A stretch of DNA of 64,000 bases, from positions 258,979-322,978 of the forward strand of contig CP064975.1 of NCBI GenBank assembly GCA_016699425.1, written 5' to 3'. This DNA is from Candidatus Moraniibacteriota bacterium. Lineage in GTDB: Bacteria; Patescibacteriota; Minisyncoccia; Moranbacterales; UBA1568. Of the stretch, positions 6,698-41,298 are shown in pieces. The notes under the pieces were generated by a model, which was given only the letters and a program-made list of their open reading frames with translations, was not told the DNA's origin and did no database searches. Numbering within the stretch: the stretch's first letter is position 1; each line of letters starts with the position of its first letter. Both the position numbers and the translations under genes were made by a program.

Positions 6698-6862
6698 ATT
6701 TTCTGAACTCACGACCTACAACCGACAACTCACAACGAGAAGAAATGTATTAAAGCATCGCTCACCGTTGTTGGTTGTTCGTGCTGGGTTATCAGTTTTT
6801 TTGGTACCAGGGGCGAGATTCGAACTCGCGACCCCGGGCTTACTCGCCCCGTACCGAAACAG

Positions 6863-6935
6863 TAGCAGGGGTGGGGATCGAACCCACGACATCAGGCTTA
6901 TGAGTCCTGTGCTCTACCAACTGAGCTACCCTGCC
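6863..6935 (-). tRNA. tRNA with CAT anticodon (elongator Met or Ile2/lysidine type)
   Basis: GGCAGGGTAGCTCAGTTGGTAGAGCACAGGACTCATAAGCCTGATGTCGTGGGTTCGATCCCCACCCCTGCTA forms a standard cloverleaf with anticodon loop CTCATAA and a G1-U72 wobble. Confidence 0.75.
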
Positions 6936-7159
6936 GGAAATGTTTTGGTACGGGGCGAATCCCGCTGCTCCCTGCCTGCCGGCAGGCAGGTAACCAACTG
7001 AGCCCCGCCCGCATGATTCGCTTGCTCATCAAGCGTATCGGGCGGGTACCCTGGCGAGGTTTATACGATGAAACCCTGACCGCGTCGCAAGGCACGGAAA
7101 TAAAGCGAGGAGCGGGGAAGATGCCACAGTATCTGTCACCTGCTGATGGCTATATTTGT

Positions 7160-8606: not shown

Positions 8607-8957
8607 ATGGCCCTTTTTATTCCTTCACGTCGATCCGAGCGGAAACCGGGAGTCTCCCTCTCGGATCACAGCCGGCAGTCCTCAGCTGCGAACAATCCGA
8701 AGGGTTGGAATCGCTTGCATCTCCGTGAAGCACTCGATCGGCTGGCGCGGGGTGATCTGGGACGACTGGATGAGACTCAGCTCAGTCGGATTCGCGAAAT
8801 CGTCGAACGCTCGGCCGGAGCGGACGGAGACCTGAGTGCTGCCCAGACGCGTGAGGCAATCCATGCTATCGAGATGAACCGAGTGAGTCTCGGTCTAGAC
8901 CAAGGCATGATGGAAAGTCTCGCGACCTTTTTAGCTGATGGCCCGGGCAATTCATGA
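8607..8957 (+). CDS. Hypothetical protein
   Basis: 116-aa ORF immediately upstream of the DedA gene, with a 4-nt overlap. No recognised domain. Confidence 0.4.
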   Translation: MALFIPSRRSERKPGVSLSDHSRQSSAANNPKGWNRLHLREALDRLARGDLGRLDETQLSRIREIVERSAGADGDLSAAQTREAIHAIEMNRVSLGLDQGMMESLATFLADGPGNS

Positions 8958-10031: not shown

Positions 10032-11234
10032 GATACCGTTACCTTTTCAGTTGATGGAAAGTGTTGTTCTTGTTAGACTAGAGCCTCAAACCGGCTGTAA
10101 AGTTGACTTTAAGCCTTAAATTTCATTCAGCATGTCAAAAAAAATGGTCACGTCACTGTCCCCGCTGCAGCAGTCGTGAGACGGTGAAGAATGGCTCCCA
10201 AGGCTACAGCCATCACTACCTGTGTCGTGCTTGTGAACATTCTTTTCTCGTTACTTCGGGCATGATCCGAGACTGCTGTGGATCGAGCATATTGATGGGG
10301 TACCGTTTCGTAAATTAGGAGATGAATATGGTCTCTCGGGAAAACAAGCCTTCGTGAGAGTTACAAGAGAATTAGCACAACTTCCTTCCAATGACGCTCT
10401 GACGCAAACCCTCTGTGACCCGAGACGCTTCTCGGGCATCCTTGTCATGGATGGGAAGTATGTGGCGGTCAAAGGCTTTGCGAGAAAGATTCCTTTTCTC
10501 TACGGCATTGATTACTTGACCCACGATATTCCTTCGGGGCTTTGTATACAGCGGAAGATGAGGTGTCCTTCTCACGTTTCTTCCATCAAGTGAAGCAACT
10601 TGGCTATGATCTTCAGATCGTGGTCGCCGATGACCGCTCTGGCCTGAAAAAGGCTCTCCTGAAGGTTTTTCCGTCGGCTCGGCTGCAGCTCTGCCACAAC
10701 CACTACCTGGAGAATATCCGGGTGGCTTTACGGGTGCGGAGTGAAGAGCGATACCGGCCCTTCTTTTACGCTCTCAAGGAGAGCGTGTTTGGAGAACGAG
10801 AGGATGTGACGAACGCCATTCGATCTTTTGCCGCGAGCATCAAGAGAGAGAAACGTCTGCTCAAAAACATCGTAAGTGAGATAGCGTACCGGCAGGAGGA
10901 ACTCTTCAATTACTTGCTGCTGCCAGGCTGTCCCAACAACACCAATCTCATTGAACTCTACAATTCCCATCTCAATGGGAGGCTGAAGACGATCAAGGGT
11001 TTTCAGAGTTTTGCTTCGGCTCAGTGTTGGTTGAATGCGTGGATGATACGGAGGAGAACCAAGCCTTTTACAGATTGTGAAGCTAAATTTAAATATTTGA
11101 ACGGTTACCCTTCACTCTCTTTGAGTATCAAAAAACAGGCTCGCTGGCCTGAGACATTAGTAAAACTAGGCGTAGAAGCAGTAAAACTTTTTGAAAAAAA
11201 GCGCCCTACTATCAACTGAAAAGGTAACGGTAAC
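10032..11234 (+). mobile_element. IS1-family insertion sequence (~1.2 kb) with 22-bp terminal inverted repeats and a 9-bp target-site duplication
   Basis: IRL G(A)TACCGTTACCTTTTCAGTTG at 10032-10053 matches the reverse complement of 11213-11234 with one mismatch. The direct repeat TACCCGAGC lies immediately outside both ends (10023-10031 and 11235-11243). The internal ORFs encode a zinc finger (HCPRC...CRACEH), MDGKYVAVKG...FLYGIDYLTHD, and NTNLIELYN..L.GRLK, which are the IS1 InsA/InsB signatures. Confidence 0.75.
10103..11219 (+). pseudogene. IS1-family transposase (insA/insB) split over three reading frames
   Basis: ORFs 10103-10318, 10354-10593 and 10542-11219 are each shifted by -1 relative to the previous one. 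One shift may be the programmed InsAB' frameshift; the second implies inactivation or a sequence error. An A8 run at 10136-10143 is a candidate slippery site. Confidence 0.6.
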
Positions 11235-11473
11235 TACCCGAGCCTCTCGTTTCAGATCATGAAAGCCCTTGAGAATGAGCCCGTGGTTTCCGGGGTGGTC
11301 GCGTGGACCGCAGCAGAAACAGAAGATCGTCCCTGAAGCGGTTGTCAAAATACCGATCCTGCCACAAACCGTGAGAGGGGTAGCGCTGCTGAGATCCATG
11401 AGATAGCTCCTTGGTATATTGGCGTGTTTGCCAATATGTGATAAAATCATTTAATTCTCACTCTGTCAACTTC

Positions 11474-13534
11474 ATGTCAACCTTCGTGCTTACATCCGAT
11501 TGGCCGCCCGCTGGGGACCAGCCCAAAGCGATTGCTTCACTCGTCGCTGGTCTTAAACGTGGGGATGATTTCCAGACGCTTTTCGGCGTGACCGGATCGG
11601 GGAAGACGTTCACTATGGCAAATGCGATTGCACAGATTGGCCGCCCGACACTCGTCATCGCGCACAATAAAACACTCGCTGCCCAGCTCGCCCAGGAGTT
11701 CGAAGAGTTTTTCCCCGATGCGGCGGTGCATTACTTTGTCTCGTACTATGACTACTACCAGCCCGAGGCGTACATGCCGATCACGGATACGTATATTGAG
11801 AAGGACGCTTCGATCAATGAAGAGATCGACCGCTTGCGCCACGCGTCGACACAGTCACTCCTGACTCGTCGTGACGTCATTATCGTCGCCAGTGTCTCCT
11901 GTATTTACGGCCTCGGGAGTCCGGAAGAATATCTGCACGAGAACATCCTCCTGACCGTAGGTGAAGTTATCACCCGTGAAACACTCCTTCGTCGGCTTAT
12001 CGCGATTTTCTTCGAGCGTACCAATGCTGACATCACGCCGGGCCACTTCCGTTCCATCGGCAATCGCATCGAGGTGATGCCGGTATCCGAGAAGTTTATC
12101 TATTCTATTGAGCTGGGTGCCAATCGGATTGAGTCGATCACACAGATTGATCCCGTTTCACAGACGATTCTCCGAGAGGAGGAAGCGATCACTCTTTTTC
12201 CGACCAAACACTTCATCACGGATGCTGACAAGAAGGAGCAGGCCTTGCTCACGATCCGAGAGGAGCTCACGACGCAACTCGGCATATTTGCGGCGGAGGG
12301 GAAACTGCTTGAGGCCGAACGGTTGAAGCGCCGGACGCACTATGATATCGCCATGATCGATGAGATCGGCTACTGTTCGGGGATCGAGAACTATTCGCGG
12401 CACCTCTCTGGCAAGGCACCGGGTGAGCCACCCGAGACCTTGCTCTCGTACTTCCCGCACCTTCCTGATGGCACGCCGGACTTCCTCACCATCATCGATG
12501 AGTCGCATGTGACGCTGCCGCAGCTTCGCGGTATGTACAATGGTGACCAGGCGCGCAAGAAGACGCTCGTCAACTTTGGTTTCCGATTACCGAGTGCTCT
12601 CGACAATAGGCCACTTCGGTATGAAGAATTCCAGGAACGGGTGGGCTCCATCGTCTTCACCTCGGCAACCCCAGCCGATTACGAGCGCGAAGTGAGTACT
12701 CAGATTGTCGAGCAGGTGATCCGACCGACGGGTCTCTTGGACCCTGAAGTCACGGTCCGCGGCATCCGAGCGATTGGCGAATACCCGGGGCAGATCGGGG
12801 ACTTCATCCGCGAGACGGAGATGGAGGTGAAGCGTGGCGGCCGAGTGATCGCGACGACCCTGACGAAAAAAATGGCTGAGGATCTCGCCCAGTACCTGAA
12901 AGACCCTTCGACACGCTCAGGGCAGGGAAAGCCAATCAAAGCCGAATACCTCCACAGTGACGTGCTCACCATCGATCGGATCAAGATCTTGACCCAGTTC
13001 CGGAAGGGCGAGTTCGATGTCCTGGTCGGTGTGAACTTGCTCCGCGAAGGACTTGATCTTCCCGAGGTGACCTTTATTGGCATCCTCGATGCGGATAAGG
13101 AGGGGTTTCTCCGTTCCGAAACCTCGCTCATCCAGATTATCGGCCGCGCCGCGCGCAATGTCCTTGGCCGTGTCATCCTCTATGCTGACCGGGTGACGGG
13201 TTCGATCGACTATGCCCTGAGCGAGACGGCTCGTCGCCGGGCCTTGCAACTGGCGTACAATACCGAGCACAGTATCACGCCGCAGACGATAAAGAAGAAC
13301 ATTCATGATATCACGGAGCGGCTGCAGAGCGAGCACGATCAGGCGGTAGCCGTATCGCTCGCGCTCGATGCCAAAGGTTTTGCCAAGGATCCAGAAAAAA
13401 TCATCCGAGCGAAGGAACGCGAGATGAAAGCGGCCGTGAAGCTTCTCGATTTCGAGACCGCGGCCATCCTGCGCGATGAGATCCGGGCGCTCGAGAAACG
13501 TCTCGGCCGAAGGAATAAGGAGACTCGGAAATGA
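11474..13534 (+). CDS. uvrB: Excinuclease ABC subunit B
   Basis: GVTGSGKTFTMANAIAQIGRPTLVIAHNKTLAAQLAQEF, YYDYYQPEAY, helicase motifs and a C-terminal UVR domain are present across ~686 aa. Confidence 0.95.
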   Translation: MSTFVLTSDWPPAGDQPKAIASLVAGLKRGDDFQTLFGVTGSGKTFTMANAIAQIGRPTLVIAHNKTLAAQLAQEFEEFFPDAAVHYFVSYYDYYQPEAYMPITDTYIEKDASINEEIDRLRHASTQSLLTRRDVIIVASVSCIYGLGSPEEYLHENILLTVGEVITRETLLRRLIAIFFERTNADITPGHFRSIGNRIEVMPVSEKFIYSIELGANRIESITQIDPVSQTILREEEAITLFPTKHFITDADKKEQALLTIREELTTQLGIFAAEGKLLEAERLKRRTHYDIAMIDEIGYCSGIENYSRHLSGKAPGEPPETLLSYFPHLPDGTPDFLTIIDESHVTLPQLRGMYNGDQARKKTLVNFGFRLPSALDNRPLRYEEFQERVGSIVFTSATPADYEREVSTQIVEQVIRPTGLLDPEVTVRGIRAIGEYPGQIGDFIRETEMEVKRGGRVIATTLTKKMAEDLAQYLKDPSTRSGQGKPIKAEYLHSDVLTIDRIKILTQFRKGEFDVLVGVNLLREGLDLPEVTFIGILDADKEGFLRSETSLIQIIGRAARNVLGRVILYADRVTGSIDYALSETARRRALQLAYNTEHSITPQTIKKNIHDITERLQSEHDQAVAVSLALDAKGFAKDPEKIIRAKEREMKAAVKLLDFETAAILRDEIRALEKRLGRRNKETRK

Positions 13535-24709: not shown

Positions 24710-24883
24710 GGAAAAAGAAAGCTCCCGGACCTATCCCTTGCGGGAAAGCGGCGATGAACGCCACAGTTTGGTTCGGGAGCACTTCCACCTATAAAATACG
24801 CTTTGCAGACCGTTTTGTCAACACTGAGTCAGCACTGATGTGGCAGTAAGTGAGCAGTCCAGAGTGGGCTAAAAAATTTGGCT

Positions 24884-41052: not shown

Positions 41053-41298
41053 ATGATGTATCATCTGTATATTCTCCGCTGTGCGGACGACACATATTAT
41101 ACGGGGATCACGACGGACCTGGTGCGGCGGGTGCGTGAGCACAATACTTCCCGGCTCGGGGCGAAGTACACGCGGGGTCGGTGTCCAGTCACGCTCGTCT
41201 ATACTCGACATTTCCGTACTCGCTCGAACGCCGCACGCGAAGAAGCTCGGATCAAGCGGCTCTCACGTTCTGCAAAGCTTTCACTCATTGAATCCTAA
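41053..41298 (+). CDS. GIY-YIG nuclease family protein (YhbQ/UPF0213)
   Basis: HLYILRCADDTYYTGITTDLVRRVREHN. Confidence 0.7.
   Translation: MMYHLYILRCADDTYYTGITTDLVRRVREHNTSRLGAKYTRGRCPVTLVYTRHFRTRSNAAREEARIKRLSRSAKLSLIES

Follow-up and report, generated by a model that had tools for sequence, protein, structure and literature searches.

How does a complete transfer RNA (tRNA) gene come to lie between the pieces of another one in a bacterial chromosome? The question is raised by a locus on the minus strand of a 64,000-nucleotide (nt) stretch of contig CP064975.1 of a Candidatus Moraniibacteriota bacterium, referred to here as the window, in which an intact tRNA-Met(CAT) gene in a tRNA operon is flanked on both sides by tRNA-like fragments. 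To our knowledge, bacterial tRNA genes are normally regarded as uninterrupted. The initial annotation had listed the tRNA-Met, a palindrome, a GAGC, a T-arm followed by ACCA and a pair of complementary 11-mers, all of which are present on the minus strand at the places given, and had proposed for the flanking pieces a disrupted or permuted tRNA or a tRNA-derived structured element. The first of these proposals is borne out, the pieces being the remains of one resident elongator-type tRNA(CAU) gene.

Close relatives were gathered by protein search and contig look-ups. Contigs on which the UvrB protein is 99% to 85% identical keep the synteny Ala-Ile-fMet-Met-Asp...DedA-UvrB; the window's own UvrB gene lies at 11411-13534, and its best named relatives are from Candidatus Moraniibacteriota, within the candidate phyla radiation (CPR, or Patescibacteria). 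In L087/L088, L089/L090, L094, L097, L120 and L122 the fourth gene of the operon is an ordinary uninterrupted tRNA(CAU), GCCAGGGTAGCTCAGTTGGTTAGAGCACGGGACTCATAAGCCCGGGGTCGCGAGTTCGAATCTCGCCCCTGGTAC, and the copies of L087, L089, L094, L097, L120 and L122 served as the orthologue reference. Against this reference the outer feature of the window is a complete and collinear tRNA body with three interruptions, whose four blocks reproduce 70 of the 75 positions of the intact gene with zero mismatches (70/70). It spans 7055-6802 on the minus strand, 254 nt in all; the feature delimited earlier at 7006-6797 is real, and its boundaries have to be moved.

Read in the direction of transcription, tRNA positions 1-9 lie at 7055-7047 and comprise the acceptor 5' strand GCCAGGG followed by U8 and A9 (TA), identical to the orthologues in all six loci. 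Insert 1, a 43-nt GC-clamped hairpin (CCCGCCCG...CGGGCGGG, 7046-7004), separates positions 9 and 10 (GTA^GCTCAG). Positions 10-21, the D-stem 5' strand and D-loop (GCTCAGTTGGTTA, 7003-6991), are again identical to the orthologues, and are separated from position 22 (TTA^GAGC) by Insert 2, the 20-nt perfect palindrome CCTGCCTGCCGGCAGGCAGG at 6971-6990, which has no second copy in the window at three or fewer mismatches; none of 100 shuffles produced one. Positions 22-31 (6970-6960) consist of GAGCA, an extra G (6965) and CGGGA, the anticodon stem 5' strand; this G after A26 is missing in all seven intact copies. Insert 3, of 118 nt (6959-6842), replaces CTCAT, that is positions 32-36 with the CAU anticodon included. 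The last block, positions 37-76 at 6841-6802, runs from AAGCCCG (loop end and anticodon stem 3' strand) through the variable loop and T-arm to CCCTGGT and ACCA, with 38/38 positions identical to the orthologues; its T-arm and ACCA, GCGAGTTCGAATCTCGCCCCTGGTACCA, occupy 6829-6802.

The acceptor strands had been thought not to be complementary, which fails once the 5' end at 7055, outside the interval first noted, is included: GCCAGGG (7055-7049) pairs 7/7, with one G-U, with CCCTGGT (6812-6806), and the pairing is present in the minimum free energy fold. The sequence GCGGGCGGG, taken earlier for an acceptor look-alike, is the 3' arm of the hairpin insert at 7046-7004, and of the supposed acceptor plus D-arm only the D-arm, GCTCAGTTGGTTA, is tRNA. 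The RNA fold of the 254 nt is a fully nested structure of -131.3 kcal/mol (z = -6.9), far beyond chance.

Neither ARAGORN nor Rfam calls the outer gene. Because 70 of its 75 positions match the orthologue while CTCAT has been lost and one G added, the outer sequence is securely identified, on comparative grounds, as the resident elongator-type tRNA(CAU)/tRNA-Met gene in a disabled state, and the loss of the anticodon together with the gained base makes it a relic rather than a split, permuted or spliced tRNA. Homology at the orthologous locus combined with lesions incompatible with function is what characterises a tRNA pseudogene, and the relic has both. The comparison with related genomes had been named beforehand as the test by which the reading as tRNA remains could fall, and it matched the pieces to a conserved uninterrupted gene. 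The alternatives fare worse. The blocks form a contiguous and collinear series in one operon and their acceptor strands pair, which does not fit a permuted gene; they lie in one transcription unit with no separate halves, as a split gene would require; and we judge a tRNA-derived structured element that is processed as such to be unsupported.

The same 254-nt nested architecture is found in L082 (GCA_049645545.1, UvrB 99% identical), where the flanks are unlike those of the window. The two relics differ by a single substitution, which changes the outer T-stem from GCGAG/CTCGC to GCGAG/CTCTC and breaks one pair, as would be predicted under relaxed constraint.

The intact tRNA-Met(CAU) nested in Insert 3 (6935-6862, minus strand) is called by ARAGORN and scores 68.1 bits with the Rfam tRNA model; CCA is not encoded, and the allele is unlike the resident type. 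No fetched locus contains a counterpart of its 3' half, and a scan of IMG/VR for it gave 0 matches; since this half is also unlike that of the resident allele, the inner gene looks imported or long diverged. To judge from its sequence it can supply the function of the lost outer gene. The exact complementary 11-mers on either side of it (6957-6947 and 6855-6845, minus strand) belong to a longer pairing of 18 nt with one mismatch, detected by inverted-repeat search and in the fold, between a left arm TCGCCCCGTACCAAAACA at 6958-6941 and a right arm TGTTTCGGTACGGGGCGA at 6861-6844 (94% complementary, minus strand). That this stem, in fact of 18 bp, loops out the whole tRNA-Met, as had been suggested, agrees with the fold. 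The CGTACC/GGTACG core of its arms is common to hairpins of L120, L121 and L122, and CCGGCAGG is contained both in the palindrome CCTGCCTGCCGGCAGGCAGG and in the 5' junction of the inner tRNA.

A different arrangement of the same site is seen in L083 (UvrB 92% identical), where GCCAGGGTA is followed by a homologous hairpin at 9/10, GCTCAG, an intact resident-type tRNA-Met and a series of 75-nt repeats. The intact tRNA-Met sits between the arms of a 22-nt inverted repeat. The repeats form a perfect tandem triplication (L083 2872-3096) with a unit made of tRNA-Met positions 20-76 and the 17-nt TTGGTGTGAGGGTGAAG, an arrangement that resembles, by analogy, the segmental amplification attributed to the phage endonuclease SegB, discussed below.

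The hairpins splitting the relic belong to a family of GC-clamped inserts of the form CCYGCCCG...CGGGCRGG, with the termini TA/CCYGCCCGA...GGGCGGG/G and two preferred tRNA sites. By alignment, Insert 1 has homologues at the 9/10 site in L083 (tRNA-Met), in tRNA-Asp 5' fragments of L097, L120 and L122 and in a tRNA-Lys fragment of L121. The other site, 21/22, which is occupied by the palindrome in the window, is split by a hairpin in a tRNA-Ala fragment of L120 (positions 1-31); the two inserts have identical termini, CCTGCC...GGCAGG, and the L120 fragment and the 5' part of the window relic stop at the same tRNA position. Set beside palindromic repeats of the MITE or REP kind, which have many dispersed copies and conserved terminal inverted repeats, nine related hairpins were found in five contexts, only three of them within the 64-kb window, and no target-site duplication is evident. 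A scan of viral contigs for the hairpin gave 21 matches, all in GC-rich coding sequence and consistent with chance. Searching metagenomes for the D-arm, with an insert allowed, gave one match, an unrelated high-GC tRNA-Met.

In the relatives the hairpin-bearing fragments have company. L120, L122 and L121 show the order hairpin-bearing 5' tRNA fragment, intact open reading frame (ORF) of 81 amino acids (aa), intact tRNA; L097 has this order with a frameshift in the ORF. The product is a GIY-YIG domain protein (Pfam PF01541, E = 1.5e-11), and its closest relatives of known structure are the UPF0213 proteins 1ywl and 1zg2. The ORF overlaps the following tRNA by exactly 10 nt in 4/4 cases, its stop codon TAG being U8-A9-G10 of the tRNA. 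A second GIY-YIG subfamily, 42% identical to the first, is represented by 79-aa ORFs of L082 (4883-4659) and L083 (4294-4064), in both contigs between a hairpin-bearing tRNA-Ala fragment and an intact tRNA-Ala.

These cassettes are polymorphic between close strains. The tRNA-Ala cassette is present in L082 and L083 and absent from the window, to which their UvrB proteins are 99% and 92% identical, and the tRNA-Asp cassette is present in L120 and L097 and absent from L087, L094 and the window. At the tRNA-Ala gene of the window an 8-nt remnant of a tRNA-Ala 5' fragment, GGGCCATT (7998-7991, minus strand), is followed by 34 nt up to the intact gene; from its sequence it is recognised as the scar of the cassette retained in L082 and L083. 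As only GGGCCATT is left in the window, cassettes must have been gained or lost between strains with 99% identical UvrB.

The C-termini of the wider ORF family carry the imprint of tRNA genes. Among 120 homologues (P0121-P0240), the last residues before the stop are G-X (GA, GR, GP and others) in 36, as translated from tRNA GGN-NNN-TAG, which corresponds to tRNA positions 2-10. In another 13/120 they are SS[A/V/T]G, as translated from AGC-TCA-G(C/T)T-GGT-TAG (positions 9-22), where the stop is U20a-A21-G22. Because the homologue C-termini translate tRNA 5' ends, running into a tRNA gene appears to be a trait of the ORF family, and its two implied stop sites coincide with the two TA^G sites split by hairpins in the relic of the window. 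Further homologues end in RP, HP, AP or PL, which fit G+NNN+NNN+TAG, and the source contigs of the homologues are mostly very short, as expected of repeated or mobile DNA. The window contains another 81-aa GIY-YIG ORF at 41053-41295 on the plus strand (PF01541, E = 5.9e-16), which has its own stop codon and tRNA-free surroundings. A tblastn search of phages with P0121 returned only Rhizobium phage GIY-YIG genes, none of them adjoining tRNAs, and NCBIfam holds no model matching the small GIY-YIG proteins.

The cassettes have the features of homing-type selfish elements, and we infer that they are such. On this basis the locus of the window is probably the scar of nuclease cassettes that target tRNA genes, the resident gene having been replaced and the ORF then lost. 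The cassettes, or the repair of the cuts that they make, would have produced both the inserts and the gene replacement at tRNA-Met by a homing-like route in which tRNA genes are targeted and the tRNA is duplicated or replaced. A third insertion would have destroyed the anticodon and brought in the complete tRNA-Met of another allele, now the functional copy, and the ORF would later have been lost here as it presumably was at the tRNA-Ala of the window and of L120. By disrupting the TA^G target sites the hairpins may either persist only in redundant copies or shield these from cleavage. The whole stretch would be co-transcribed, the inner tRNA being freed by RNase P and 3' processing, possibly helped by RNase III, which would cut the 18-bp stem, and the outer pieces would be discarded.

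Several observations weigh against this account. The tRNA-Met site has no GIY-YIG ORF in the window, L082 or L083, and the window locus is therefore classed as a cassette footprint and not as a member; the link to the nuclease at tRNA-Met is made through the shared hairpins and the neighbouring cassettes. The association itself comes from four ORF-bearing loci, two tRNA-Ala loci and the indirect C-terminal signatures, a small sample of cassettes with known genomic context. Canonical cassettes leave a 5' fragment only, and the window adds a 3' fragment and an anticodon-loop insert, for which reason an extra or different event is needed at tRNA-Met. One hairpin of the family (6450-6419) sits in the loop of an unrelated candidate non-coding RNA (ncRNA) and not at a TA^G, so that the hairpins may move independently of the nuclease. 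Finally, no outer stem of the window has been broken, and in two lineages the inner tRNA stands between inverted repeats, which could mean a recent origin or selection for a role in processing.

In a rival explanation the outer gene is likewise a relic and its hairpins would be autonomous miniature palindromic inserts unconnected to the GIY-YIG ORFs, either as the tRNA counterpart of the short ORF-less inserts, or intervening sequences (IVS), of CPR rRNA genes or as products of template switching or fold-back repair, which would settle in any DNA for a dispensable structured RNA. The hairpin in the ncRNA-candidate loop, away from nuclease ORFs and from any TA^G, speaks for this explanation, the tRNA-Met site without an ORF is in line with it, the occurrence of CCGGCAGG in the palindrome and at the inner tRNA 5' junction suggests local inverted duplication, and CPR rRNA genes hold many short uncharacterised inserts at the tips and bases of stem-loops (PMC11270868). 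Against it, all four first-subfamily cassettes and both tRNA-Ala cassettes have a hairpin in their 5' fragment, and the two hairpin sites are the two stop-codon sites of the ORF family; we regard it as a minority possibility. An IVS processed by RNase III is a helix-closed insert, cleaved with no ligation, in a structured-RNA gene that stays functional; the inserts here are helix-closed and their host tRNA gene is non-functional. The intactness of the outer stems might alternatively reflect exaptation, the outer helices and the 18-bp stem being kept as a scaffold that directs maturation by RNase III or RNase P or stabilises the inner tRNA-Met. The fully nested and very stable fold speaks for this, as do the long inverted repeats of unrelated sequence around intact tRNA-Met genes in the window (18 nt) and L083 (22 nt). 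There is, however, no covariation, because the stems of the window and L082 are identical, and the outer T-stem pair that differs is already broken in L082; six related loci mature the same tRNA with no scaffold, and the neighbouring cassettes turn over fast between near-identical strains. A scaffold role is unlikely.

That the interrupted gene is a functional multi-intron tRNA, of archaeal or of a new bacterial type, with its inserts excised and its exons ligated, is very improbable. Each insert is helix-closed and ARAGORN accepts the sequence with all three inserts removed, a call that depends on the removal of all of them and is not obtained when Insert 3 alone is taken out. There is, however, no bulge-helix-bulge at any junction. 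The closing helices abut the exons directly, those of Inserts 1 and 2 measuring 8-10 bp and lacking 3-nt bulges; Insert 3 has an asymmetric internal loop followed by an uninterrupted helix of 11-18 bp. Exact excision would give, on a Met body, Tyr(GUA) or a Thr(AGU) that has one base too many at position 26, and never Met; moreover, the orthologues are intron-less, a complete tRNA-Met lies inside the structure, and in L082 the T-stem is broken. A three-intron tRNA for Tyr(GUA), or a stop-codon suppressor, as obtained from hand-spliced sequence with ARAGORN, was rejected because the orthologues show a tRNA-Met body minus its anticodon. Insert 3 is also no group I intron, as it consists of a stem and a tRNA and the Rfam search gave no Intron_gpI match at the gathering threshold or at E<=10; at E<=10 Rfam found nothing in the tRNA cluster besides the five tRNAs. 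An assembly chimera or a chance resemblance can practically be dismissed. Several contigs of the L083 population do end inside the tRNA cluster, a region that is hard to assemble, but the blocks are 70/70 identical to the orthologue, and the nest is neither an artefact nor one genome seen twice, because L082 is an independent NCBI assembly with differing flanks.

Beyond the cassette scar at tRNA-Met, the data allow a broader proposal, which we put forward tentatively and with rather less confidence, namely that CPR bacteria harbour an undescribed class of minimal selfish elements directed to tRNA genes and made of three parts. The first would be a 79-81-aa UPF0213/GIY-YIG ORF directly before a tRNA and ending on a conserved TAG of that tRNA, U8-A9-G10 or U20a-A21-G22; the others would be a duplicated 5' tRNA fragment and a GC-clamped hairpin that splits the same TA^G in this fragment. 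If so, RNase P processing of the tRNA would strip the stop codon from the mRNA of the ORF, the hairpin might guard the redundant copy against the element's own nuclease, and the tRNA-in-tRNA nest of the window would be a multi-hit footprint of the class. It would also be the first biological role for the UPF0213 family, and already at this stage a testable lead is given on the function of these widespread, uncharacterised GIY-YIG proteins.

The relic lies in a predicted operon on the minus strand that opens with a promoter-like site, TGGACA-17-TATAAT (8045-8017, 11/12 match), and continues with tRNA-Ala (7956-7881), tRNA-Ile (7711-7637), an initiator-type tRNA-Met (7232-7158), the nest and tRNA-Asp (6697-6623), after which there is a terminator (6622-6580). 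No terminator is predicted between the promoter and 6622-6580, which indicates, as far as can be told from sequence, that the relic is co-transcribed in an Ala-Ile-fMet-[relic/Met]-Asp operon. Directly 3' of the initiator tRNA there is a 30-nt spacer element, AGCCATCAGCAGGTGACAGATACTGTGGCA (7151-7122, minus strand), which is nearly invariant across the syntenic relatives, the remaining spacer being variable, and which possibly acts as a processing signal. In L089, and likewise in L090, the operon is interrupted by an insert of about 440 nt between tRNA-Met and tRNA-Asp (L089 932-1370) and by a FAD_binding_4 gene (L089 1656-3161) that separates tRNA-Ile from the initiator tRNA. A megablast search of phage genomes with the tRNA cluster matched only the initiator tRNA.

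The ncRNA candidate that hosts one of the hairpins follows the operon at 6472-6289 on the minus strand. It is conserved and of about 150 nt, the 184 nt of the window copy being due to the 32-nt hairpin insert at 6450-6419, and other copies are found in L094 (about 8165-8014), L089/L090, L082 and L120 (about 8730-8880). Provided with a terminator and with a TATAGT -10-like box of its own, it begins with GGGGGCG and finishes with ...GAGTCC(C/T)GCCGTCCCCGCCA, which are the acceptor stem and 3' end of tRNA-Asp, and has a hairpin and a domain of about 95 nt in place of the D, anticodon and T loops. In an RNAalifold consensus of five copies, compensatory changes occur in 14 of the 53 pairs; folded singly, the sequence has z = -4.8, and no Rfam family matched. 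Either an ncRNA derived from tRNA-Asp or a further old relic of a tRNA gene would fit. The last 20 nt or so of tRNA-Asp (GTCCCGCCGTCCCCGC) are present in three direct copies, at 6639-6613, 6538-6512 and 6307-6281, belonging respectively to the real tRNA, to a short orphan fragment between two terminators and to the end of the ncRNA candidate, a triplication that resembles the 3' duplications of attachment (att) sites.

A Mutator-family transposase fragment (10542-11219, plus strand; PF00872, E = 7.6e-12) between the DedA-like gene and uvrB appears to be a strain-specific insertion sequence remnant, as the two genes are just about 600 nt apart in L082 and L083. At the border of a stretch of low GC (0.39-0.46, 24-30 kb), Rfam has a match to DUF3800-IX RNA (24717-24780, minus strand), with 50 bits where the gathering score is 36.8. 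An exact-sequence look-up of the neighbouring LysE protein was without match, and a UvrB scan of genome contigs gave phylum-level matches, none close enough to be syntenic.

In the literature that could be searched on tRNA introns or on GIY-YIG proteins with tRNA in CPR bacteria, no description of such an arrangement was found. The nearest known system is SegB of phages T4 and T6, a free-standing GIY-YIG homing endonuclease encoded in a tRNA gene cluster, which makes its cuts within tRNA genes at a conserved tRNA motif, promotes the spread of the tRNA region and brings about tandem amplification (PMC2330249, PMC13096335). Points of likeness are a GIY-YIG gene among tRNA genes, a presence/absence polymorphism between close relatives and the co-conversion of tRNA genes; the nuclease-dependent tandem amplification of tRNA segments in the SegB system may be compared with the 75-nt triplication in L083. 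SegB itself is a phage protein of two domains and roughly 220 aa, and the motif that it recognises is in the T-arm. In contrast, the present ORFs encode putative nucleases, UPF0213 proteins of 79-81 aa with the catalytic domain only, and are carried by CPR chromosomes. They run up against the 5' end of the tRNA, whose TAG (positions 8-10 or 20a-22) serves as their stop, and beside them lies a second copy of the tRNA 5' part, interrupted by a GC-clamped hairpin.

Within the same radiation, rRNA genes are known to carry insertion sequences, among which are short ORF-less inserts and non-intron inserts encoding GIY-YIG proteins (PMC11270868; PMC10714607). The position at stem-loop tips and bases and the presence in some of GIY-YIG genes that belong to neither group I nor group II introns are points of likeness. 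The 16S and 23S host genes, however, stay functional, the inserts being presumably removed or tolerated, whereas in the present case the interrupted tRNA gene no longer works and encloses its replacement. The paper on the rRNA inserts does not mention tRNA (PMC11270868), and the present locus would extend the invasion known from CPR rRNA genes to tRNA genes.

The multi-intron, split and permuted tRNA genes of archaea, with their bulge-helix-bulge introns (PMC4390854, PMC3978253, PMC4033280), likewise have helix-forming inserts at several non-canonical positions, the D-arm region included. The present gene is distinguished from them by its bacterial host, the lack of a bulge-helix-bulge, collinearity, a missing anticodon and intact intron-less orthologues. 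In Lak megaphages a predicted intron of tRNA-Thr possibly encodes a tRNA (PMC6784885), and as here a complete tRNA is predicted in the anticodon-loop insert of another tRNA and is polymorphic between genomes; the outer tRNA of Lak, however, keeps its anticodon and is read as intron-containing, whereas here the anticodon is lost and there are two further inserts.

Integrases duplicate the 3' end of the tRNA gene into which they insert and leave kilobase-sized elements. The att duplications so produced resemble the cassettes in that an intact tRNA stands beside a redundant fragment of the same tRNA, and the triplicated tRNA-Asp 3' end of the window belongs to the same comparison. Unlike integrase scars, the present cassettes duplicate the 5' end (positions 1 to about 20), measure about 300 nt and encode a nuclease and not a recombinase.

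Set against these systems, a dead gene with its replacement nested inside is nothing unusual in kind. The setting that it brings to light is unusual, with small GIY-YIG ORFs fused to tRNA 5' ends and hairpin-split tRNA fragments beside them. It suggests that the tRNA D-arm, the most conserved DNA of the cell, serves as a landing pad for selfish elements in streamlined ultra-small bacteria, with gene carcasses, nested replacement genes and tandem amplification as outcomes. For annotation this is a warning, as a tRNA within a tRNA, or apparent tRNA halves, in bacterial metagenome-assembled genomes may be the scars of mobile elements and not split or intron-containing genes of the archaeal style.

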